Sequence record: NC_047899.1
Source of the DNA: Escherichia phage VEc3
Direction: 5' to 3' (one strand)
Length of the DNA stretch: 44,895 nt
Part shown: positions 1-40,392 of the stretch, in pieces
Position numbering within the stretch: the stretch's first letter is position 1
How the letters are laid out: each line of letters begins with the position of its first letter
The notes under the pieces: model-generated
Databases searched by the model: none
The model's input: only the letters and a program-made list of their open reading frames with translations
Told to the model about the DNA's origin: nothing
Program-made: the position numbers and the translations under genes

Positions 1-304
1 CTCGCCCTCGCCCTCGCCGGGTTGTCCCCATAGGGTGGCCTGAGGGAATCCGTCGAAGACGGGCAGGGCTGATGTACTCCTTGTACTAGCTTAGTAGTAC
101 ACAAGGGCAGGCCGTACTAGTTAGCTGGTACAGCCTAGTCTTTGCTCATGTACTAGCAAGGTGGAACGCTGGAGAGCGCCTAGGACGGCCTAGGGCACGC
201 CTTAGTGTTGGACAAGGTGAATGCCTTAGTGAAGCCTCTTAGTGCATTCCTGAGGCCATTCAGGGCGTTTATGAGGTATTGACAGGGTGGGCGTGGGTGG
301 GCTA
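1..304. repeat. Left direct terminal repeat (DTR), 304 bp
   Basis: Positions 1-304 are repeated exactly at 44592-44895; begins with a CTCGCC x3 tract and contains GTACTAG and CTTAGTG short repeats. Confidence 0.95.
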
Positions 305-384
305 TCTGTTCGTTTCGCTAGCGCTCCACTCACAAGCCTGACGTGTACCTTAGGTACTACCTTATGCTATTACTTGATGGATAG

Positions 385-486
385 CTTAGGTTAACCTTAG
401 TGGACTACCTTAGTTAAAGCCTTAGTGCTTATCTTAGTAATAGCTTAGTAGTGTACCTTAGTAAGTCTTAGTGTCTTCTCTTAGTG
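385..486. repeat. Phased CTTAGT(G/A) short-repeat array, about 9 copies
   Basis: CTTAG cores at 385,396,409,421,433,444,457,467,480, spaced 10-13 bp (about one helical turn); further copies at 201,225,237 (inside DTR) and 629,663,699. Confidence 0.8.
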
Positions 487-632
487 ATTGCACATGCAAG
501 CATGTAAGATGCCATTAGGTCGCGGTCGGTAGACCGCTAAAGAAAGAGAATAGTAATAAGATGCAGTAGGAGGAACACCAGAAACCTAGCCAACCTAGCC
601 TATCCTAGCTCTGTATCTGTTGCTCTTCCTTA

Positions 633-648
633 GTCTCACATGTTAGAC
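633..648. repeat. Degenerate copy of the 16-bp palindrome (GTCTCACATGTtAGAC)
   Basis: One mismatch to the GTCTCACATGTGAGAC element found at six other sites. Confidence 0.6.
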
Positions 649-715
649 AACCTAGGTTTACCTTAGTAGTTGTGACATGTATCACATAAATAATCTATCT
701 TAGTGAAATTTAGTG

Positions 716-744
716 TTGACATAGGTAATAGCTGGTAGTACATT
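716..744 (+). promoter_or_regulatory. Candidate host sigma70 early promoter (TTGACA-N17-TACATT)
   Basis: Perfect -35 TTGACA at 716-721, 17-bp spacer, -10 TACATT at 739-744; same architecture as 1348-1376. Confidence 0.55.
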
Positions 745-777
745 ACAGTCATCGGGAGGCAACATAGCCAAACGGTA

Positions 778-807
778 GGTAACTAAGTTACCTTGCTCTT
801 TAACAAT
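778..807 (+). promoter_or_regulatory. Hairpin plus rrn-type boxA (GCTCTTTAACAAT), candidate Nus antitermination site 1
   Basis: Hairpin GGTAAC-TAA-GTTACC at 778-792 followed by GCTCTTTAACAAT at 795-807; matches the E. coli rrn boxA core. Confidence 0.6.
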
Positions 808-865
808 TTGCTTAGTGTAACCTGTGTATGCCGTGGTTAATTACTTATTGAATGAGGAATTAACT

Positions 866-964
866 ATGAATTACGAAAAACTGTATAAAGCCTATTACTA
901 TAACGCATTAGTGAGAGGAGAAGAGCCTTTGTCTTATGCTGAGTTTGTGGAGGCTTTATCATGA
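866..964 (+). CDS. Small early ORF (32 aa), hypothetical
   Basis: ATG at 866 preceded by GAGG; stop overlaps next start (ATGA); not in the supplied track (below length cutoff). Confidence 0.3.
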   Translation: MNYEKLYKAYYYNALVRGEEPLSYAEFVEALS

Positions 965-1137
965 CTCTAACTAACCGTGAACTATCCGTTCTCTTCACCT
1001 TGTTATGCTACATGATTCGTAACAACGAATTGCTTACAGATGACGAGTTAGCCTTGTATCACCGCTTTCTGAACGAAGGTTGGACCGATACAGTTAACCA
1101 GAAACGTGACCTGATGAAGGAGCTAACCAATGTTTAA
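961..1137 (+). CDS. Small early ORF (58 aa), hypothetical
   Basis: ATG at 961 overlapping upstream stop; ends overlapping the start of ORF 1130. Confidence 0.35.
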   Translation: MTLTNRELSVLFTLLCYMIRNNELLTDDELALYHRFLNEGWTDTVNQKRDLMKELTNV

Positions 1138-1339
1138 ACATGAGATTTACACGGATTGCAATAAATCGGCTAAAGCTATCTGCGATTTGTACAAGGCAGA
1201 ATGTCAGACGTACAACCTCAACGATGGTACTGAGATGTTTTATCTTCAGTTTGAAAGCAAGTTATCTCACAAACGAGTGATTAACAGCCTGAATCAACAC
1301 TCCTTGGAGTGGGAAGAAGTAAATAGCAATAAAGTTTAA
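1130..1339 (+). CDS. Hypothetical early protein (69 aa)
   Basis: Track ORF; translationally coupled to the upstream small ORF. Confidence 0.5.
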   Translation: MFKHEIYTDCNKSAKAICDLYKAECQTYNLNDGTEMFYLQFESKLSHKRVINSLNQHSLEWEEVNSNKV

Positions 1340-1347
1340 ATTAACTA

Positions 1348-1376
1348 TTGACAGCCACGGCATACAAGGTTACATT
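1348..1376 (+). promoter_or_regulatory. Candidate host sigma70 early promoter (TTGACA-N17-TACATT)
   Basis: -35 TTGACA at 1348-1353, 17-bp spacer, -10 TACATT at 1371-1376. Confidence 0.55.
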
Positions 1377-1383
1377 AAGCATC

Positions 1384-1422
1384 AAGACGGCGACGTCTTT
1401 AAACATCCCGCTCTTTAACAAT
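1384..1422 (+). promoter_or_regulatory. Hairpin plus rrn-type boxA, candidate antitermination site 2
   Basis: Hairpin AAGACG-GCGA-CGTCTT at 1384-1399, then GCTCTTTAACAAT at 1410-1422. Confidence 0.6.
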
Positions 1423-1464
1423 AAGGTTTGTGTCTTGATAGGCTAACTAACTAAGGTAATTATC

Positions 1465-1575
1465 ATGAAAGGTTTAATTTGTGTAGAACGTATGGTCAAT
1501 GGTAAACTTGAAATATTACCACTGGAAAACCAATCTAGCTTCAAAGAGTGGTATGGCTGTTTCTCACTGATTTAA
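1465..1575 (+). CDS. Small early ORF (36 aa), hypothetical
   Basis: ATG at 1465 with AAGG upstream; below track cutoff. Confidence 0.3.
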   Translation: MKGLICVERMVNGKLEILPLENQSSFKEWYGCFSLI

Positions 1576-1581
1576 GGTAAA

Positions 1582-1630
1582 GGCTGGCACTAGTCAGCCT
1601 ATCAAGGCGCAAACCAAGCTCTTTAACAAT
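1582..1630 (+). promoter_or_regulatory. Hairpin plus rrn-type boxA, candidate antitermination site 3
   Basis: Hairpin GGCTGGC-ACTAGT-CAGCC at 1582-1599, then GCTCTTTAACAAT at 1618-1630. Confidence 0.6.
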
Positions 1631-1726
1631 TTGGATGGTAGCTTCTTAGTCTGGATAGGTTAAACCTAGGGGATTCTCTTGAGTCTCCTATAATGTAACC
1701 TAACTAACTAAATGAGGATTAACAAC

Positions 1727-2080
1727 ATGGCTATGTCTAATATGACTTACTCTCAGGTTTACAACACTGCTCATGCTGCACTGGTTGAACGCGTATGGGA
1801 TGATGCCATTGATTGTATTGATAACGCACATGATGCAATCCATGAGGTAGCGGACAGTGCTGTACCAATCTATTATGCTGACATCTTCTCAGTGATGGCC
1901 AGTGAAGGCATCGACCACTTCTTCGAGGATTCTGGCTTAATGCCAGACACTAAGGATGTGACGGTCGTACTACAAGCCCGTATTTATGAACAACTCACCA
2001 TTGATTTATGGGAACGTGTTCAAGATATGATTGATGCGTACATCGATTCCGCTGAGGATTCAGAAGAAGAAGAGGAATAA
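1727..2080 (+). CDS. ocr: Ocr-like DNA mimic (T7 gp0.3 homolog), anti-restriction
   Basis: 117 aa from ATG 1727 (GAGGA RBS); begins MAMSNMTY and contains [15 protein letters not shown] and [13 protein letters not shown]...[15 protein letters not shown] blocks recalled from T7 Ocr; acidic tail DSEEEEE; track ORF start at 1712 is probably too early. Confidence 0.85.
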
Positions 2081-2082
2081 GA

Positions 2083-2196
2083 ATGGAAAAGCTATACAAC
2101 TTCATCTTTTCAGACGGTGTAACCCTGAAGTGTTCCCTACGATTCGCTCAGATTCGTGAGGAAGTGCTAGGTACTACATACAAACTATTTAGCTGA
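2083..2196 (+). CDS. Small early ORF (37 aa), hypothetical
   Basis: ATG 3 nt after the ocr stop; below track cutoff. Confidence 0.3.
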   Translation: MEKLYNFIFSDGVTLKCSLRFAQIREEVLGTTYKLFS

Positions 2197-2210
2197 CACT
2201 ATAAGAGAAG
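2187..2210 (+). promoter_or_regulatory. Phage-promoter-like element, variant ATTTAGCTGACACTATAAGAGAAG
   Basis: Matches the SP6-type promoter except the conserved +1 G is A. Confidence 0.35.
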
Positions 2211-2272
2211 GCTTAACAAGGCGTTGCTACGGTAGCGCCTGATTAAACTTTCACTTACTAGAGGTTAAAATT

Positions 2273-2398
2273 ATGAAACTATCGCCATCCGCTAAAGGCC
2301 TCATTGCAGAACTTAAAGACTCTTTGAGGAATCCAATCATTTGGGCACTTATCTACATACCTTATGGTATCTACCTATTTCACCTCATCACTGAGTAA
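2273..2398 (+). CDS. Small hydrophobic early protein (41 aa)
   Basis: ATG 2273 with GAGG upstream; hydrophobic C-terminal segment IIWALIYIPYGIYLFHLI. Confidence 0.35.
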   Translation: MKLSPSAKGLIAELKDSLRNPIIWALIYIPYGIYLFHLITE

Positions 2399-2430
2399 AT
2401 AGCCTATAGCCTACCTATGTGGGCTATGTG

Positions 2431-2453
2431 ATATTTACTTACACTATAAGGTG
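2431..2453 (+). promoter_or_regulatory. Phage-promoter-like element, variant ATATTTACTTACACTATAAGGTG
   Basis: Resembles the phage promoter but with A at +1 and TTAC for TGGA. Confidence 0.35.
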
Positions 2454-2459
2454 ATTAAT

Positions 2460-3383
2460 ATGACTACTGAAAACACCCTTCTGTCTGTTCGTGAAGCTGC
2501 AACCGCTGAAATCAAGCAGCACTTAGACAATATCGGCACTTCTTACATCAAAGTTGGCGCTTGTCTGAATGAATTACGCGGTGATTTCGAAGGTCAAAAA
2601 GACTTTTTAGCTTATGTAGAATCAGAGTTCGGCATCAAGAAAGCACAATGCTACAAGCTGATGAGTGTAGCCCGTGTCTTTGAAGGAGACGAACGCTTTA
2701 AAGGTGTGGCTATGCGTGTAATGCTGGCGCTTGTTCCTTTCGCTGATGAAAATATAATCATGGAGAAGGCCGCAGAACTCGCCGCAGAGGGCAAGCTGGA
2801 CACTAACGCCGTAAACGCCCTGATTGATCCTAAGAAAGAGACAAAGGCCGAGACGGTACAATCTAAGGTTGAGTCGGTAAAACCGCAGGAGAACGCGACT
2901 GAGGCCGCAGAAACTATGCAAGGACATGCAACCTTTGAGGATTTCATATTAGAGAAGGCGAAAGAGGAGCTACAAAGTGTGCCGCCAGCAAGTGAGTCTG
3001 GTAACGACGAATCCGCACCGTGGGAAGACAAAAGCAAGCAGGAAGACACAAAGGCAGCGCCACGGGATAACACGGCTAACACCGAGAGTGCCGCTATTGC
3101 TGGCCTTCTGGCACAAATTAAAGCACTGACCGAGCAATTACAGGCAGCTAATGACCGCATTGCCTCCTTAAGCAGCGCACGCGAAAGCAAGAAAGCAGCC
3201 GCGCCTATGCTGCCGCAATTCAAATCTTCCTGCTTCTATGCTCGCTTAGGTTTAAGCGCTGAGGAGGCAACGAAGAAAACAGCAGTTAACAAGGCACGCC
3301 GCGAACTGGTTAAGCTAGGCTACGGCGAAGGCCATGAAGCATGGCCCTTAATCTCTGAGGCAGTAGAAGAATTAACTAAGTAA
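2460..3383 (+). CDS. Early protein (307 aa): conserved N-terminal domain, acidic low-complexity linker, coiled-coil, C-terminal domain
   Basis: Track ORF 2451-3383; ATG 2460 preferred (AAGG 8 nt upstream); occupies the slot of T7 gp0.7 but has no kinase motifs; N-terminal domain resembles a DUF3102-type phage domain (by recall). Confidence 0.7.
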   Translation: MTTENTLLSVREAATAEIKQHLDNIGTSYIKVGACLNELRGDFEGQKDFLAYVESEFGIKKAQCYKLMSVARVFEGDERFKGVAMRVMLALVPFADENIIMEKAAELAAEGKLDTNAVNALIDPKKETKAETVQSKVESVKPQENATEAAETMQGHATFEDFILEKAKEELQSVPPASESGNDESAPWEDKSKQEDTKAAPRDNTANTESAAIAGLLAQIKALTEQLQAANDRIASLSSARESKKAAAPMLPQFKSSCFYARLGLSAEEATKKTAVNKARRELVKLGYGEGHEAWPLISEAVEELTK

Positions 3384-3446
3384 CCTTATCGGTGGCATCT
3401 TCTTAGGTGTCACCTATTAAGGTTTCTTTCACTAGGAGTAAACAAG

Positions 3447-6074
3447 ATGCAAGACCTACACGCTATTCAACTTCAACTTGAAGAAGAAATGTTTAACGGC
3501 GGTATCCGTCGCTTTGAAGCGGACCAACAACGCCAGATTGCATCCGGTAATGAATCAGACACGGCATGGAATCGCCGCTTATTGTCCGAGTTAATCGCGC
3601 CAATGGCTGAAGGCATTCAGGCATACAAGGAAGAGTATGAAGGTAAAAGAGGCCGTGCACCGCGTGCATTAGCTTTCATTAACTGCGTAGAAAACGAAGT
3701 GGCAGCATATATCACGATGAAAATCGTTATGGATATGCTGAACACGGATGTAACCTTGCAGGCTATAGCCATGAATGTAGCTGACCGCATTGAGGACCAA
3801 GTACGTTTTAGCAAGCTGGAAGGTCACGCCGCCAAATACTTTGAGAAAGTTAAGAAGTCACTTAAGGCAAGTAAGACTAAATCATATCGCCATGCGCACA
3901 ACGTAGCGGTCGTGGCTGAGAAGTCAGTAGCTGACCGTGACGCTGATTTCTCTCGCTGGGAGGCGTGGCCTAAAGATACCTTGCTACAAATTGGTATGAC
4001 CTTGCTAGAAATACTGGAAAATAGTGTATTCTTCAATGGTCAGCCTGTCTTTCTTCGCACCTTGCGCACTAATGGTGGCAAGCATGGCGTTTACTACTTA
4101 CAGACTAGCGAACACGTGGGTGAATGGATAACTGCATTTAAAGAGCACGTAGCTCAGCTGAGTCCAGCCTATGCGCCTTGCGTTATTCCTCCTCGTCCGT
4201 GGGTTTCTCCGTTTAATGGTGGCTTCCATACTGAGAAAGTAGCAAGCCGTATTCGTCTAGTAAAAGGCAATCGTGAGCACGTCCGCAAGCTGACCAAAAA
4301 GCAAATGCCAGCGGTTTACAAGGCTGTTAACGCTTTGCAGGCGACTAAGTGGCAGGTTAATAAAGAGGTTTTGCAGGTAGTAGAGGACGTTATTCATCTC
4401 GACCTTGGTTATGGTGTGCCTTCCTTTAAACCACTCATCGACCGTGAGAACAAGCCAGCTAATCCAGTGCCGTTAGAGTTCCAGCACCTGCGAGGCCGTG
4501 AATTGAAAGAGATGCTAACACCGGAGCAATGGCAGGCCTTCATCAACTGGAAGGGTGAATGTACTAAGCTGTATACCGCTGAGACTAAGCGCGGCAGCAA
4601 GTCGGCGGCGACCGTCCGCATGGTAGGACAGGCCCGTAAATACAGCCAGTTTGACGCTATTTATTTTGTATATGCACTGGATAGCCGTTCACGCGTTTAT
4701 GCGCAATCTAGCACGCTCTCGCCGCAATCAAACGACTTAGGCAAGGCATTGCTCCGTTTTACCGAAGGGCAGCGTCTTGATAGCGCTGAGGCGCTTAAGT
4801 GGTTTTTGGTGAACGGGGCGAATAACTGGGGTTGGGATAAGAAAACTTTTGACGTGCGCACCTCTAACGTGCTGGATGGCGAATTTCAAGACATGTGCCG
4901 CGACATTGCAGCCGATCCGCTGACCTTCACTCAATGGGTAAATGCTGATTCCCCTTACGGCTTCCTTGCATGGTGCTTTGAATATGCGCGTTATCTGGAT
5001 GCACTGGATGAAGGCACGCAAGACCAATTCATGACGCATCTACCCGTCCATCAAGACGGTAGTTGCTCTGGTATCCAGCACTATAGCGCGATGTTACGCG
5101 ATGAAGTAGGTGCGAAAGCAGTAAACCTTAAGCCTTCTGACTTCCCTCAAGATATTTATGGCGCAGTCGCGCAGGTTGTTATCCAGAAGAATTACGCCTA
5201 CATGAATGCAGACGATGCAGTGACTTTCACATCTGGAAGCGTCACACTTACAGGTGCAGAACTGCGTAGCATGGCTAGTGCGTGGGATATGATAGGAATC
5301 ACTCGCGGATTGACCAAAAAGCCCGTAATGACACTACCTTATGGCAGCACACGTCTAACCTGCCGTGAATCAGTGATTGATTATATCGTTGATTTGGAAG
5401 AAAAAGAGGCCCAACGAGCTATTGCGGAAGGGCGTACCGCCAATCCTGTACATCCTTTTGATAATGACCGTAAGGACAGCCTGACACCTAGTGCAGCTTA
5501 TAACTATATGACGGCTTTAATCTGGCCTTCTATTTCGGAAGTGGTTAAAGCTCCTATAGTGGCAATGAAAATGATTCGTCAGCTTGCCCGTTTCGCAGCT
5601 AAAAGGAATGAAGGCTTAGAGTATACCTTGCCTACTGGCTTCATCTTGCAACAAAAGATTATGGCTACCGACATGCTACGCGTATCCACTTGCTTGATGG
5701 GTGAAATCAAGATGAGTCTACAGATTGAGACTGATGTAGTGGATGAAACGGCTATGATGGGCGCTGCTGCTCCTAACTTTGTTCACGGGCATGATGCTAG
5801 TCATCTCATCCTGACTGTATGTGACCTCGTTGACAAGGGCATTACATCCATCGCAGTCATCCATGATTCTTTCGGTACTCACGCAGGCCGTACAGCCGAT
5901 CTACGTGATAGTCTAAGGGCAGAAATGGTGAAGATGTATCAAGGCCGTAATGCCCTGCAAAGCCTGTTAGATGAGCATGAAGAACGCTGGTTAGTAGACA
6001 CCGGAATCCAAGTGCCAGAGCAAGGAGAGTTTGACCTTAACGAAATCTTAGTATCTGACTATTGCTTCGCATAA
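3447..6074 (+). CDS. DNA-directed RNA polymerase, single-subunit, SP6-type
   Basis: 875 aa; begins [32 protein letters not shown] and contains [27 protein letters not shown] and IHDSFGTH motifs; ends ...DYCFA like T7-family RNAPs. Confidence 0.95.
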
Positions 6075-6082
6075 TATTAATA

Positions 6083-6116
6083 GGCCATTCCTTCGGGAGT
6101 GGCCTTTTCTTTTACC
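6083..6116 (+). terminator. Rho-independent terminator after the RNAP gene
   Basis: GGCCATTCC-TTCG-GGAGTGGCC stem-loop (UUCG tetraloop) followed by TTTTCTTTT. Confidence 0.7.
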
Positions 6117-6147
6117 TACTACCGGTAACATTTCATTAACATAAAGT

Positions 6148-6163
6148 GTCTCACATGTGAGAC
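6148..6163. repeat. 16-bp perfect palindrome GTCTCACATGTGAGAC (copy 1)
   Basis: Exact palindrome immediately upstream of the phage promoter at 6166. Confidence 0.8.
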
Positions 6164-6165
6164 TT

Positions 6166-6188
6166 ATTTACCGGACACTATAGGATAG
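6166..6188 (+). promoter_or_regulatory. Phage RNAP promoter (ATTTACCGGACACTATAGGATAG)
   Basis: Matches the ATTTACyGGACACTATAG core; predicted +1 G at 6183. Confidence 0.6.
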
Positions 6189-6329
6189 CCGTCGGAGACG
6201 GGAAAGAAAGGGAAGATAAAGGATATAAAAGGAAGTAATAGGTATTAAAGGCTATATAGGTTATCTAGGAATACCTATTACCTTCTTCCTTCCTCTTATT
6301 ACTACTTAGAGGAAGGGCAGATCTAGGTT

Positions 6330-6345
6330 GTCTCACATGTGAGAC
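6330..6345. repeat. 16-bp perfect palindrome GTCTCACATGTGAGAC (copy 2)
   Basis: Exact palindrome immediately upstream of the promoter at 6351. Confidence 0.8.
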
Positions 6346-6350
6346 TTCGT

Positions 6351-6373
6351 ATTTACCGGACAGTATAGATAAG
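6351..6373 (+). promoter_or_regulatory. Phage RNAP promoter variant (ATTTACCGGACAGTATAGATAAG)
   Basis: Consensus-like with C to G at -5; precedes the HNH gene. Confidence 0.5.
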
Positions 6374-6395
6374 ACTAACTTACTTTGGAGGTTAC

Positions 6396-6812
6396 ATGCG
6401 TAAATCATTAGCTCAAAGAGTAGAGCAAGCAGGTTATACTATACAAGACGACGGTACTATCAAAGGTAAGCGAGGTAACATCTTGAAACCTTGGCTTCAA
6501 TCTTCAGGTTATCCAGTTGTAAATATAGTATTCAAGAAAGGTACAAAGACAACTACCCTTGTGCATCGCATAATTGCTAGTAAGTATTGTCCTTGCTCTG
6601 ACCCGTTGGCTAATGATGTAAACCACAAAGACGGAATCAAGACTAATAATGCAGCTTCTAATCTTGAATGGATTACACGTAGGCAGAACCGTAATCACTA
6701 TTTAGGTTTTGAGGACTATATGACACTTACGGCAGAGGATGCCCGTAAGAAGAATAATGAGCGCACTATTGCTCGACGTAAATTACTTAAACAGTTGAAT
6801 AATAAGGACTAA
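6396..6812 (+). CDS. HNH homing endonuclease
   Basis: 138 aa; VNHKDGIKTNNAASNLEWITRRQNRNH motif; AT-rich relative to neighbours. Confidence 0.85.
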   Translation: MRKSLAQRVEQAGYTIQDDGTIKGKRGNILKPWLQSSGYPVVNIVFKKGTKTTTLVHRIIASKYCPCSDPLANDVNHKDGIKTNNAASNLEWITRRQNRNHYLGFEDYMTLTAEDARKKNNERTIARRKLLKQLNNKD

Positions 6813-6814
6813 TT

Positions 6815-6946
6815 ATGCGTACTAACTTCGAAAAGATGACCCGTAAAGCTAACCGTTTTGACATGGAAGAAGGGCAGAAGAAAGGCAAGAAGCTGAATGT
6901 ACCTGTCCGTGACCGTGCATCTAAACGCGCTGCGTGGGAGTTCTAA
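6815..6946 (+). CDS. gp1.1-like small basic protein (43 aa)
   Basis: MRTNFEKMTRKANRFDMEEGQKKGKKLNVPVRDRASKRAAWEF resembles recalled T7 gp1.1 (MRNFEKMTKRSNRNARDFEATKGRKLNKTKRDRSHKRSWEGQ); AAGGA RBS. Confidence 0.5.
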   Translation: MRTNFEKMTRKANRFDMEEGQKKGKKLNVPVRDRASKRAAWEF

Positions 6947-6949
6947 GTT

Positions 6950-8938
6950 ATGGCTATTATTCAGAATGTACCGTGTCCTGCCTGTCAAAAGAATGGACAT
7001 GATATTACTGGCAACCATCTTATGATATTTGAGGATGGCGCTGGTTACTGTAACCGTGGTCACTTCCATGATAACGGTAAACCTTATTACCACAAGCCGG
7101 AAGGTGGCATCGAGATAACCGAGTTACCTATTACTGGCAATATCAAATATACACCTTCTCAATTCAAAGAAATGGAGAAGGAAGGGAAGATAAGCGACCC
7201 TAAGCTACGCGCCATCGCACTTGGTGGTATGCGTATGAAAGACCGTTGGGAGGTTATGAATGAGCAAGAAAGGGCAGACCAAGAAGCAGAGTGGAAACTT
7301 GATGTTGAATGGTTCCTCACGCTTAAGCGTAAGAACCTTGTATCCCGTCACATTCGAGGTGACATCGCAGCAATGTACGATGTGCGCGTTGGACACGATG
7401 AAGAGGGAAGAGTCAACCGTCACTATTATCCACGATATGAAAAGGGTGTGCTTGTTGGAGCAAAATGCCGGACGTTGCCGAAGGATTTTAAGTTCGGACA
7501 CCTAGGTAAACTCTTTGGTATGCAAGATCTTTTCGGTATGAACACTTTGTCTCACGTGTTAGACAAGGGGAGACGAAAGGATTGCTTGCTTATTGTAGGC
7601 GGTGAACTTGATGCACTAGCAGCGCAGCAGATGCTCCTTGATTCTGCCAAGGGTACTAAGTGGGAAGGCCAGCCATACCATGTATGGTCTGTCAACAAAG
7701 GTGAGTCTTGCCTTGAAGAGATAGTGCAGAACCGTGAGCATATCGCCCAATTCAAGAAGATTATTTGGGGCTTTGATGGGGATGGGGTTGGGCAGAAGCA
7801 GAACCAGCAAGCGGCTCGCCTGTTTCCCGGCAAATCCTATATCCTTGAATATCCTTCTGGTTGCAAAGATGCCAACAAGGCATTGATGGCTGGCAAGGCT
7901 AAAGAATTTGTGGATGCTTGGTTTAATGCAAAGTCATCTGATGAAGTCTTTGGTAGCCAGATTAAATCTATCGCATCTCAAAGAGATAAGCTCAAGGCTG
8001 CACGTCCAGAACAAGGGCTGTCATGGCCTTGGCCTAAGCTAAACAAGGTAACACTGGGTATCCGTAAGAACCAGCTTATCATTATAGGTGCAGGCTCTGG
8101 TGTAGGTAAGACTGAGTTCCTCCGTGAAGTAGTTAAGCATCTCATTGAAGAACACGGTGAATCTGTAGGCATCATTTCTACAGAAGACCCGATGGTCAAG
8201 GTGTCCCGTGCTTTTATCGGTAAGTGGATTGATAAGCGTATTGAGTTACCTCCAACCAATGACCCGAAAGAAGACGGATACCGTGAGGTGTTCGACTACA
8301 CCGAGGAAGAAGCTAACGCCGCCATTGATTATGTAGCTGATACAGGTAAGCTGTTTGTAGCTGACCTAGAAGGTGACTATTCGATGGAGAAGGTAGAGCA
8401 AACTTGCCTAGAGTTTGAGGCCATGGGTATTTCTAATATCATCATTGATAACTTAACGGGGATTAAATTAGATGAGCGTGCTTTTGGTGGGAAGGTTGGT
8501 GCACTTGATGAATGCGTCAAGCGGATTGGTACTATCAAAGACAGACACCCAGTTACTATATTCCTTGTATCACACCTTACACGTCCTCCGGCAAACCGTA
8601 CCCAACACGAAGAAGGTGGCGAGGTTATCCTTTCTGACTTCCGAGGCTCAGGAGCTATCGGATTCTGGGCATCTTACGCCTTGGGGATTGAGCGTAATAC
8701 AAGAGCTGAAACGCTTGACGAAAGGACTACCACGTATATCTCATGTGTCAAAGATCGCGACCAAGGTATCTTCACCGGAACCAAGATTATGCTTAAGGGT
8801 GATATTCAAACCGGACGTTTGAGAGAACCACAGGCTAGAACAAGGTCATTTGATACAGGTGAAGCAAGGCAACAAGAAGTGCCGGATTTACCGGACACTA
8901 TAGAAGAGACAACTTTTGACGATGAACAGGAGTTTTAA
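6950..8938 (+). CDS. DNA primase/helicase (gp4-like)
   Basis: 662 aa; N-terminal Cys4 zinc ribbon (CPACQ...CNRGHFH); Walker A GAGSGVGKT; acidic C-terminus ending ...DDEQEF. Confidence 0.9.
   Translation: MAIIQNVPCPACQKNGHDITGNHLMIFEDGAGYCNRGHFHDNGKPYYHKPEGGIEITELPITGNIKYTPSQFKEMEKEGKISDPKLRAIALGGMRMKDRWEVMNEQERADQEAEWKLDVEWFLTLKRKNLVSRHIRGDIAAMYDVRVGHDEEGRVNRHYYPRYEKGVLVGAKCRTLPKDFKFGHLGKLFGMQDLFGMNTLSHVLDKGRRKDCLLIVGGELDALAAQQMLLDSAKGTKWEGQPYHVWSVNKGESCLEEIVQNREHIAQFKKIIWGFDGDGVGQKQNQQAARLFPGKSYILEYPSGCKDANKALMAGKAKEFVDAWFNAKSSDEVFGSQIKSIASQRDKLKAARPEQGLSWPWPKLNKVTLGIRKNQLIIIGAGSGVGKTEFLREVVKHLIEEHGESVGIISTEDPMVKVSRAFIGKWIDKRIELPPTNDPKEDGYREVFDYTEEEANAAIDYVADTGKLFVADLEGDYSMEKVEQTCLEFEAMGISNIIIDNLTGIKLDERAFGGKVGALDECVKRIGTIKDRHPVTIFLVSHLTRPPANRTQHEEGGEVILSDFRGSGAIGFWASYALGIERNTRAETLDERTTTYISCVKDRDQGIFTGTKIMLKGDIQTGRLREPQARTRSFDTGEARQQEVPDLPDTIEETTFDDEQEF
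8886..8908 (+). promoter_or_regulatory. Phage RNAP promoter embedded in the primase/helicase 3' coding sequence
   Basis: ATTTACCGGACACTATAGAAGAG, full consensus; +1 G at 8903; encodes ...DLPDTIEE... Confidence 0.65.
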
Positions 8939-40369: not shown

Positions 40370-40392
40370 ATTTACTGGACAATATAGAAGAG
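40370..40392 (+). promoter_or_regulatory. Phage RNAP promoter variant (ATTTACTGGACAATATAGAAGAG)
   Basis: Single C to A change at -5; +1 G at 40387; upstream of tailspike 1. Confidence 0.55.

Follow-up and report, generated by a model that had tools for sequence, protein, structure and literature searches.

A probable A-start promoter for the phage's own RNA polymerase upstream of the polymerase gene in Escherichia phage VEc3

Introduction

The RNA polymerases (RNAPs) of the phages SP6 and K1E are in wide practical use, and it is customary to describe their promoters by one G-start consensus. SP6 RNAP prefers to start with G (PMC10783517), and the SP6 promoter number is quoted as "12" (PMC11880802). 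Promoters of single-subunit RNAPs that carry A at +1 are already known, namely phiOL and phi2.5 of T7, phi1.3 of T3 and phi1.1 of K11. T7 phiOL is described as a weakly used promoter with a role in directing the T7 RNAP-mediated entry of the genome (PMC6171733). Here we analyse two promoter-like sequences upstream of the RNAP gene of Escherichia phage VEc3 (NC_047899.1), whose entire 44,895-nucleotide sequence is referred to as the window. A preliminary description had reported that element 1 (2187-2210, ATTTAGCTGACACTATAAGAGAAG) and element 2 (2431-2453, ATATTTACTTACACTATAAGGTG) match the phage promoter except at the initiating position, and both strings are present exactly there.

With its left-end 8 kb as query, the window matches 114 phage records, the best at about 96% identity and most of them from Escherichia Vectrevirus (K1E/K1-5-like), and the RNAP gene product (875 amino acids) shares 99-100% identity with Vectrevirus RNAPs and 86% with SP6 RNAP. 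Judged by these left-end matches and RNAP identities, the window is the complete genome of an SP6-related Vectrevirus podophage of the Molineuxvirinae. The GenBank/RefSeq records of SP6, K1-5 and K1E have no promoters annotated, and a look through the literature for transcriptomic data or tabulated promoters from SP6-like phages gave nothing usable.

Results

Element 1 matches the phage promoter up to position -1

The core ACACTATA occurs in 12 copies in the window, all on the + strand, against 2.03 expected from shuffled sequences; none of 100 shuffles reached 12. Ten copies belong to canonical promoters of the form ATTTACTGGACACTATA·GAAG (the dot separates positions -1 and +1), and the remaining two are elements 1 and 2. 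A position weight matrix was built from the ten canonical promoters and used to scan both strands, with scores taken over -17..-1. The scan recovered the ten promoters, two further ones at 6351 and 40370 that a plain search for ACACTATA misses, and element 1. Only 13 of 89,744 window positions reach 20 bits or more. The 12 G-start promoters score 22-30 bits, and element 1 falls inside this range. Its full-length match in register, its 24.4 bits and the rarity of such scores place it far beyond chance. For element 1, the claim of a match to the promoter thus stands. Its mismatches are confined to -12..-10, inside the last two codons (Ser and stop) of gene 4, and bases -17..-8 double as the coding end of that gene including its TGA stop.

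Downstream of TATA, element 1 reads AGAGAA where the canonical promoters read GAAGAG. The G at +1 that characterises SP6/K1E-type promoters, and that the other 12 promoters of the window have, is therefore absent. By its sequence, element 1 is a member of a variant promoter class, and a promoter function is not thereby excluded.

Element 1 lies on the + strand with the genes, and the ATG of gene 5 follows 69 nt downstream. In the matrix scan no other phage promoter lies 5' of the RNAP gene and the terminator that follows it (6082-6105), and there is no match of at least 8 bits left of 2187 in the window. The ordinary phage promoters begin 3' of the post-RNAP terminator, a layout shared by the phages Premi, K13PH07C1L and phiEa1H. 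Because element 1 precedes the RNAP gene and points in the same direction, every transcript that begins there must contain this gene. The earlier proposal of a phage-RNAP promoter upstream of the polymerase gene therefore holds for element 1 and, as described below, not for element 2.

The A start marks a single promoter position across the Molineuxvirinae

Start bases were tallied over 33 genomes or loci (the latter designated by L and a number), 30 of which carry an internal promoter upstream of the polymerase gene. This promoter starts with AGAG or AGAT in 29 of the 30 genomes, whereas promoter copies elsewhere in the same loci, i.e., not upstream of the RNAP gene, start with G in 120 of 120 cases. 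In SP6, a sequence scan gave 12 G-start sites and the counterpart of element 1. An exact scan of IMG/VR for the 14-mer TGACACTATAAGAG mostly returned unrelated contigs.

Homologous pre-RNAP promoters were found in seven Molineuxvirinae lineages, and in each the upstream half fits the lineage's own consensus. All retrieved Vectrevirus loci carry ATTTAGCTGACACTATA·AGAGAAG, either exactly or with one base changed (...CTGACACTATA), and SP6 and SP6-like contigs have A(G/A/T)TTATGTGACACTATA·AGAT or AGAG (...GTGACACTATA). In Klebsiella phage K13PH07C1L, eleven G-start promoters fit TAATAGTGGCGAGTATA·GAA with at most two mismatches, and the pre-polymerase copy, located directly 3' of the gene 4 homologue, is TAATTGTGGCGAGTATA·AGATAG. 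The corresponding pairs of consensus versus pre-polymerase copy are TATTGTGTTGCACTATA·G versus AATTATGTAGCACTATA·AGAGG in L041 (...GTAGCACTATA), AATAAGGGGCTACTATA·GAAC versus AATAAGAGGCTACTATA·AGAGAG in L043 (...GGCTACTATA), AATTAGGGCGGACTATA·GAAC versus AATAAAGGCGGACTATA·AGAGGG in L044 (...GGCGGACTATA) and ATTAACCACCCAGTATA·GAAGG versus ATTAACCACCCACTATA·AGAGGAAG in the Erwinia-type L054 (...CCACCCACTATA). The sole exception to the A start, the Era103-like contig L049, carries TATA·GAGGAAGTACAC, which is the L054 sequence minus the A (TATA·GAGG versus TATA·AGAGG). Because L049 equals L054 with the A deleted, the signature is best described, at the level of these alignments, as an A added after TATA, ahead of the usual G.

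The overlap with gene 4 does not account for this conservation, because the gene 4 stop codon sits at different promoter positions among lineages: at -10..-8 here versus -17..-15 in the K13 lineage. The C-terminal ...YKLFS* of the gene 4 product is conserved in Premi too. RNA structure cannot explain the conservation either, because AGAG is kept with or without a following hairpin and is retained also where a Shine-Dalgarno sequence and an ATG come next. From the 29 of 30 A starts as opposed to G in all 120 copies elsewhere, and from the upstream half tracking the consensus of each lineage, we conclude that element 1 represents a maintained promoter class for the cognate polymerase, with the A start as a selected property. 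That the A start is, in these alignments, the conserved signature of one promoter position across the subfamily is a point absent from the preliminary description.

The pre-RNAP promoter is decayed or absent in Acadevirus and absent in phiEa1H. Premi, L042 and phiEa1H, all without an internal pre-polymerase promoter, have a G-start phage promoter at the left end, shortly before the first host-type promoter (at about 42744 in Premi, OR798392; at 576 in L042). L026 has one at 779, and L049 combines a left-end promoter (757) with the internal one. These left-end promoters of Acadevirus and Erwinia-type relatives precede the early genes. In Premi and L042 the left-end promoter is located directly 5' of the first TTGACA host-type promoter, a phiOL-like layout that is not found in this window. 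Where the internal promoter is missing, a left-end G-start one is present, and from this comparison the subfamily as a whole appears to need some phage promoter 5' of the polymerase gene and the early terminator. Promoters were not definable from the loci of an Edwardsiella phage and of Pseudomonas phage Njord, which are more distant Autographiviridae.

Element 2 is probably a composite of other features

Element 2 has only the 8-base core in common with the promoters and does not match the consensus in register. The distance from ATTTACT to ACACTATA is one base short, and in the TATA-aligned register used for scoring it reaches 0.6 bits, a level (at least 0 bits) at which 40 window positions score. 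The reported match except at +1 consequently does not extend to this element. Among relatives, the core ACACTATA is present in a subset only and is otherwise TCATTATA, ACACTCTA, ACACTAAA, ACACTAGA or AACTAACT, so that element 2, with a core that is variable or absent, does not track lineage specificity. The linker between the hairpin of genes 5/6 and the gene 6 Shine-Dalgarno sequence is variable and in some genomes contains an additional TA or A. The element 2 region is wholly missing in relatives without gene 5, and in these relatives (L010, L011, L022 and the K13 lineage) the A-start promoter leads directly into gene 6.

Both halves of element 2 are otherwise accounted for. The hairpin at 2392-2441 has the conserved part, (GA)TATTTACTT, as its 3' arm, and this arm supplies the ATTTACTT of element 2. 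The AAG after TATA is the beginning of the gene 6 Shine-Dalgarno sequence AAGGTGAT; relatives in which the region is present keep AAGGT(G/A)A before the gene 6 ATG. Given the spacing defect, the low score, the variable core and this double origin, element 2 is probably a hairpin arm, a variable linker and a ribosome-binding site rather than a promoter; it is possibly a decayed promoter copy. The alternative is that element 2 is a weak phage promoter as well, giving a second autoregulatory start and an 11-nt leader for gene 6. The exact core beside ATTTACT speaks for this, as do K1-5-type genomes, where the counterpart has the canonical 17-nt spacing (ATTTACTTAACACTATA·TAAGG). The K1-5 form, however, departs from the consensus at -10 and -9 and carries T at +1, many close relatives have a mutated core, and in the window itself the spacing is short; that the region is lost along with gene 5 is a further objection. 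We regard a second promoter here as unlikely.

The region lacking gene 5 and element 2 corresponds to positions of about 2979-3053 in the Vectrevirus contigs named above and to 3432-3523 in L025.

Two-tier hairpins occupy the intergenic regions downstream of element 1

Three two-tier hairpins lie between element 1 and the RNAP gene (Table 1). The first starts at +4 of element 1; in 15 sequences its upper stem shows compensatory changes at 8 of 15 pairs, and no core pair is broken. Its counterpart is kept in Proteus phage Premi, which lacks a promoter there. In the second, every lower-stem pair is kept in the consensus, and at one of these pairs A-U has given way to G-C in 5 sequences. All three are intergenic, have an internal loop and a conserved structure as RNase III sites do, and reach z-scores of -3.7 to -4.9. 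Only 2405-2428, within the second, was flagged as terminator-like, and its downstream T run is poor. Because T3 phi1.1 and phi1.3 directly precede the RNase III sites R1.1 and R1.3, we infer by analogy that these hairpins are RNase III-type processing or stabilising sites. The preliminary description had considered element 1 itself as a processing site. This idea is half right, in that a covarying RNase III-type hairpin follows the promoter and the promoter is not the site.

A scan of positions 1-7000 against Rfam returned no family and only sub-threshold miRNA-hairpin hits, on both strands, at 2196-2266; these reflect the hairpin and not an RNA family. We also considered that, in read-through RNA, pairing with the promoter sequence hides the gene 5 Shine-Dalgarno sequence, which would leave only RNA started at the promoter to be translated. 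This candidate was rejected because accessibility with the real 5' arm was no different from that with shuffled arms in most of 17 loci.

Other features of the window

The coordinates of all features are collected in Table 1. For the gene 6 product no Pfam family was matched. The promoter at 6351 is conserved in all Vectrevirus loci that reach that far. Directly 3' of it, and ahead of the primase/helicase gene, lies an HNH endonuclease open reading frame (6396-6812, 138 aa; PHROG 959, E = 4.6e-34).

Table 1. Features of the VEc3 window discussed in the text
Feature	Position	Strand	Remarks
Host-type promoters	716 and 1348		TTGACA-17-TACATT
Gene 4	2083..2196	+	From the list of open reading frames, 37 aa; PHROG 11746, E = 1.5e-29; 3' end overlaps element 1
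Element 1, recognition region (-17..-1)	2187..2203	+	ATTTAGCTGACACTATA; 24.4 bits, 3 mismatches, in register
Element 1, predicted start region AGAGAA	2204..2209	+	+1 = A2204; canonical G displaced to +2 (2205)
Two-tier hairpin, 5' leader	2207..2252	+	Minimum free energy -22.9 kcal/mol, z = -3.9; upper stem 2219-2227/2232-2240
Gene 5	2273..2398	+	From the list of open reading frames, 41 aa, hydrophobic C-terminus; first gene 3' of element 1
Second two-tier hairpin, genes 5/6	2392..2441	+	50 nt; minimum free energy -25.0 kcal/mol, z = -4.9
Element 2	2432..2448	+	TATTTACTTACACTATA; 0.6 bits, 7 mismatches, probably non-functional
AAGGTGAT, gene 6 Shine-Dalgarno	2449..2456	+	AAGGTGA; gene 6 ATG at 2460
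Gene 6	2460..3383	+	307 aa; PHROG 4571, E = 2e-129; adjoins the RNAP gene, conserved there
Third two-tier hairpin, gene 6/RNAP gene	3378..3428	+	Minimum free energy -23.5 kcal/mol, z = -3.7; not flagged as terminator-like
Single-subunit RNA polymerase gene	3447..6074	+	From the list of open reading frames; inside the predicted element 1 transcription unit
Strong intrinsic terminator	6082..6105	+	10-bp stem, 6 G-C pairs, then TTTTCTTTT; directly 3' of the RNAP gene
First G-start phage promoter	6166..6182	+	29.6 bits over -17..-1; 3' of the terminator
Second post-terminator promoter	6351..6367	+	ACAGTATA·GATAAG; 22.9 bits over -17..-1; changed -5 base
Promoter with changed -5 base	40370-40386		ACAATATA·GAAGAG; found by matrix scan

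The segment 6183-6350, between the tandem post-polymerase promoters, contains a purine-rich tract (AAAGAAAGGGAAGATAAAGGATATAAAAGGAAG...) followed by a pyrimidine-rich counterpart (...CCTTCTTCCTTCCTCTT); relatives have AGGTA-type repeats between the corresponding promoters, and the position corresponds to the annotated primary replication origin of T3 after phi1.05. A 16-bp palindrome, GTCTCACATGTGAGAC, occurs in 8 copies with at most two mismatches (633, 6148, 6330, 7549, 9117, 10261, 14894 and 31561; 0.18 expected), and several copies lie 2-15 bp upstream of phage promoters (6166, 6351, 14925). Related palindromes are GTCTCACACGTGAGAC in Erwinia phages, TGTCCAACAYGTTGGACA in Premi and K13PH07C1L, and GTCTCACACTGTGAGAC in Pseudomonas phage Njord, which has eight copies.

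The non-coding left-end region at about 200-720 is rich in short CTTAGT(G/A) repeats and recalls the left-end short repeat arrays of the T7 group. Further to the right, but still upstream of element 1, the 12-mer GCTCTTTAACAA, the rrn-type boxA antitermination sequence, is found in three exact copies (795-806, 1410-1421 and 1618-1629; 0.02 expected by chance). The copies at 795 and 1410 lie within 70 nt 3' of the host-type promoters 716 and 1348, and no host-type promoter was flagged just upstream of the copy at 1618. T7 has a single copy, at 813, after promoter A3.

Discussion

Proposed role of element 1

We propose that element 1 is a genuine A-start promoter for the phage's own RNAP that serves an attenuated self-transcription or hand-over step, and that element 2 is not a promoter; we put the probability of this reading at about 65%. 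The phage RNAP would recognise the near-consensus -17..-1 region and initiate at 2204 with ATP or, one base later, at 2205 with GTP. With a G-preferring polymerase, the A start would be expected to fire less efficiently than the G-start promoters, and the weakening suggested in the preliminary description is a reasonable guess. The resulting RNA would comprise the conserved two-tier hairpin, gene 5, gene 6 and the RNAP gene and would end at the terminator (6082-6105). Such transcription could establish a low-gain positive loop in which RNAP and the products of genes 5 and 6 are expressed without need of the host RNA polymerase. Newly made phage RNAP would have a start site 5' of the terminator from which to take over transcription, and by analogy with T7 phiOL the role could reach to genome internalisation. 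Placing an SP6 promoter immediately 5' of a flavivirus genome and adding the m7GpppA cap analogue gave infectious RNA whose 5' ends are stated to be authentic (PMC7290298). Because infectious RNA was made from such clones, SP6 RNAP, despite its preference for G, tolerates an A start.

Several points weigh against this proposal. No experimental start-site or expression data for element 1 were found in the accessible literature, and the presumed weakness derives from the A at +1 as K1E/SP6-type polymerases would be expected to treat it. The A is not indispensable, judging from the L049 sequence, which lost the A and kept the promoter. Three hairpins, one of them (2405-2428) terminator-like, lie between element 1 and the RNAP gene. 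A role in hand-over or entry is weakened by the lineages that use a left-end promoter instead, and the likeness to phiOL is incomplete, since phiOL starts with G in T3 and K11, so that the A start is conserved for element 1 and not for phiOL.

Alternative explanations

One alternative is that the A start has been selected for ATP initiation itself, either coupling the self-amplifying polymerase loop to the ATP/GTP balance of the host or allowing NAD or dephospho-CoA to start, cap and stabilise the polymerase mRNA. Sensing of the initiating nucleoside triphosphate occurs at rRNA promoters, and if the same applied here, the pre-RNAP promoter would be a dedicated regulatory class across the Molineuxvirinae. 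We consider such a selection improbable.

A somewhat less probable view holds that element 1 acts mainly at the DNA level and not in gene expression, so that it would prime replication or take part in concatemer processing; the T7 phiOL/phiOR "replication promoters" have been proposed to act in this way. The analogy with phiOL, which likewise has an A start and lies upstream of gene 1, and the coincidence of T7 secondary origins with promoters favour it. Element 1, however, is 2.2 kb inside the genome and directly before genes and a leader hairpin, no AT-rich origin-like tract follows 2204, and the place of the T7/T3 primary origin is occupied by the tandem promoters 6166/6351 with their purine-rich spacer.

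It is very unlikely that the conserved feature is an RNase III site of the host-made early transcript whose resemblance to a promoter is incidental. A long irregular hairpin (2188-2269, z = -4.8) is indeed predicted in read-through RNA, and its inner hairpin covaries and persists in Premi without a promoter. The consensus structure excludes -17..+4, though, AGAG and the promoter are kept in L044 and L054 without the following hairpin, and pairing cannot account for the way in which -12..-5 track polymerase specificity. Promoter and hairpin rather coexist, like the promoter/RNase III site pairs of T3 and T7.

Marginally less credible still is an inherited relic, promoter-like by ancestry and out of use. 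It would fit the deviations from the consensus at -12..-10 and +1 and the decay or absence of the promoter in Acadevirus and its absence in phiEa1H. Against it, seven lineages have replaced the specificity bases to fit their own promoters while the flanking intergenic sequence diverged, and selection for recognition by the cognate polymerase must therefore have continued.

The least credible possibility, and one raised in the preliminary description, is a site that binds RNAP as a decoy or roadblock, titrating the phage polymerase or stopping the host polymerase, without productive initiation: a near-consensus binding half joined to a non-canonical start is what it predicts, but a single site cannot titrate an abundant enzyme, the upstream half of element 1 tracks lineage promoter specificity and sits before genes, the combination of A start, RNase III site and genes marks annotated productive promoters of T3 and T7, and SP6 RNAP starts productively on the promoter constructs used with m7GpppA (PMC7290298).

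Implications

Through at least seven specificity changes, the phages have kept an extra promoter class, TATA·AGAG, before the polymerase gene, which suggests that the early-to-middle switch of this subfamily includes a step of self-transcription or hand-over, probably an attenuated one. An A start of the SP6/K1E subfamily that is tied to one position and survives repeated specificity changes is apparently undescribed in the literature covered, to which the original SP6/K1-5 genome papers did not belong; the element 1 site may already be listed in earlier work. The lineages provide natural A-start (AG-initiating) promoters for several orthogonal polymerases, with a possible use in the production of AG-cap or A-start transcripts. 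For annotation, element 2 cautions that core-only matches are not promoters.

Comparison with known promoters

Element 1 shares with the canonical SP6/K1E promoters (ATTTAGGTGACACTATA·GAAG in SP6, ATTTACTGGACACTATA·GAAG here) the 17-bp architecture, the strand and the location at a gene end or in an intergenic region. It differs from them in its start, which is AGAG as opposed to GAAG, GAAC or GGA, in being the only one 5' of the RNAP gene and early terminator, and in its coding -17..-8 part.

T7 phiOL (TAATACAACTCACTATA·AGGAGA, annotated at 405 in NC_001604) is like element 1 in having A at +1 and in being the sole phage promoter 5' of the polymerase gene. It occupies the far left end, after the terminal repeat and ahead of the first host-type promoter, whereas element 1 lies 2.2 kb inside, 3' of the promoters 716 and 1348 and after the ocr and gene 4 homologues. 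An A start as a general rule for phiOL in the T7 group was considered and rejected: T7 has A, and T3 and K11 do not.

The other known promoters of this type, the class II promoters T7 phi2.5 (TATT·AGGG), T3 phi1.3 (TAAC·AGGAGA) and K11 phi1.1 (TATC·A), also have A at +1 and belong to the early/middle region, and element 1 is of the same kind. T3 phi1.3 directly precedes the annotated RNase III site R1.3, just as element 1 precedes a two-tier hairpin at which RNase III may cleave. All three, however, lie downstream of the polymerase gene and have a changed -1 base, whereas element 1 keeps TATA and has an A effectively inserted before the G.

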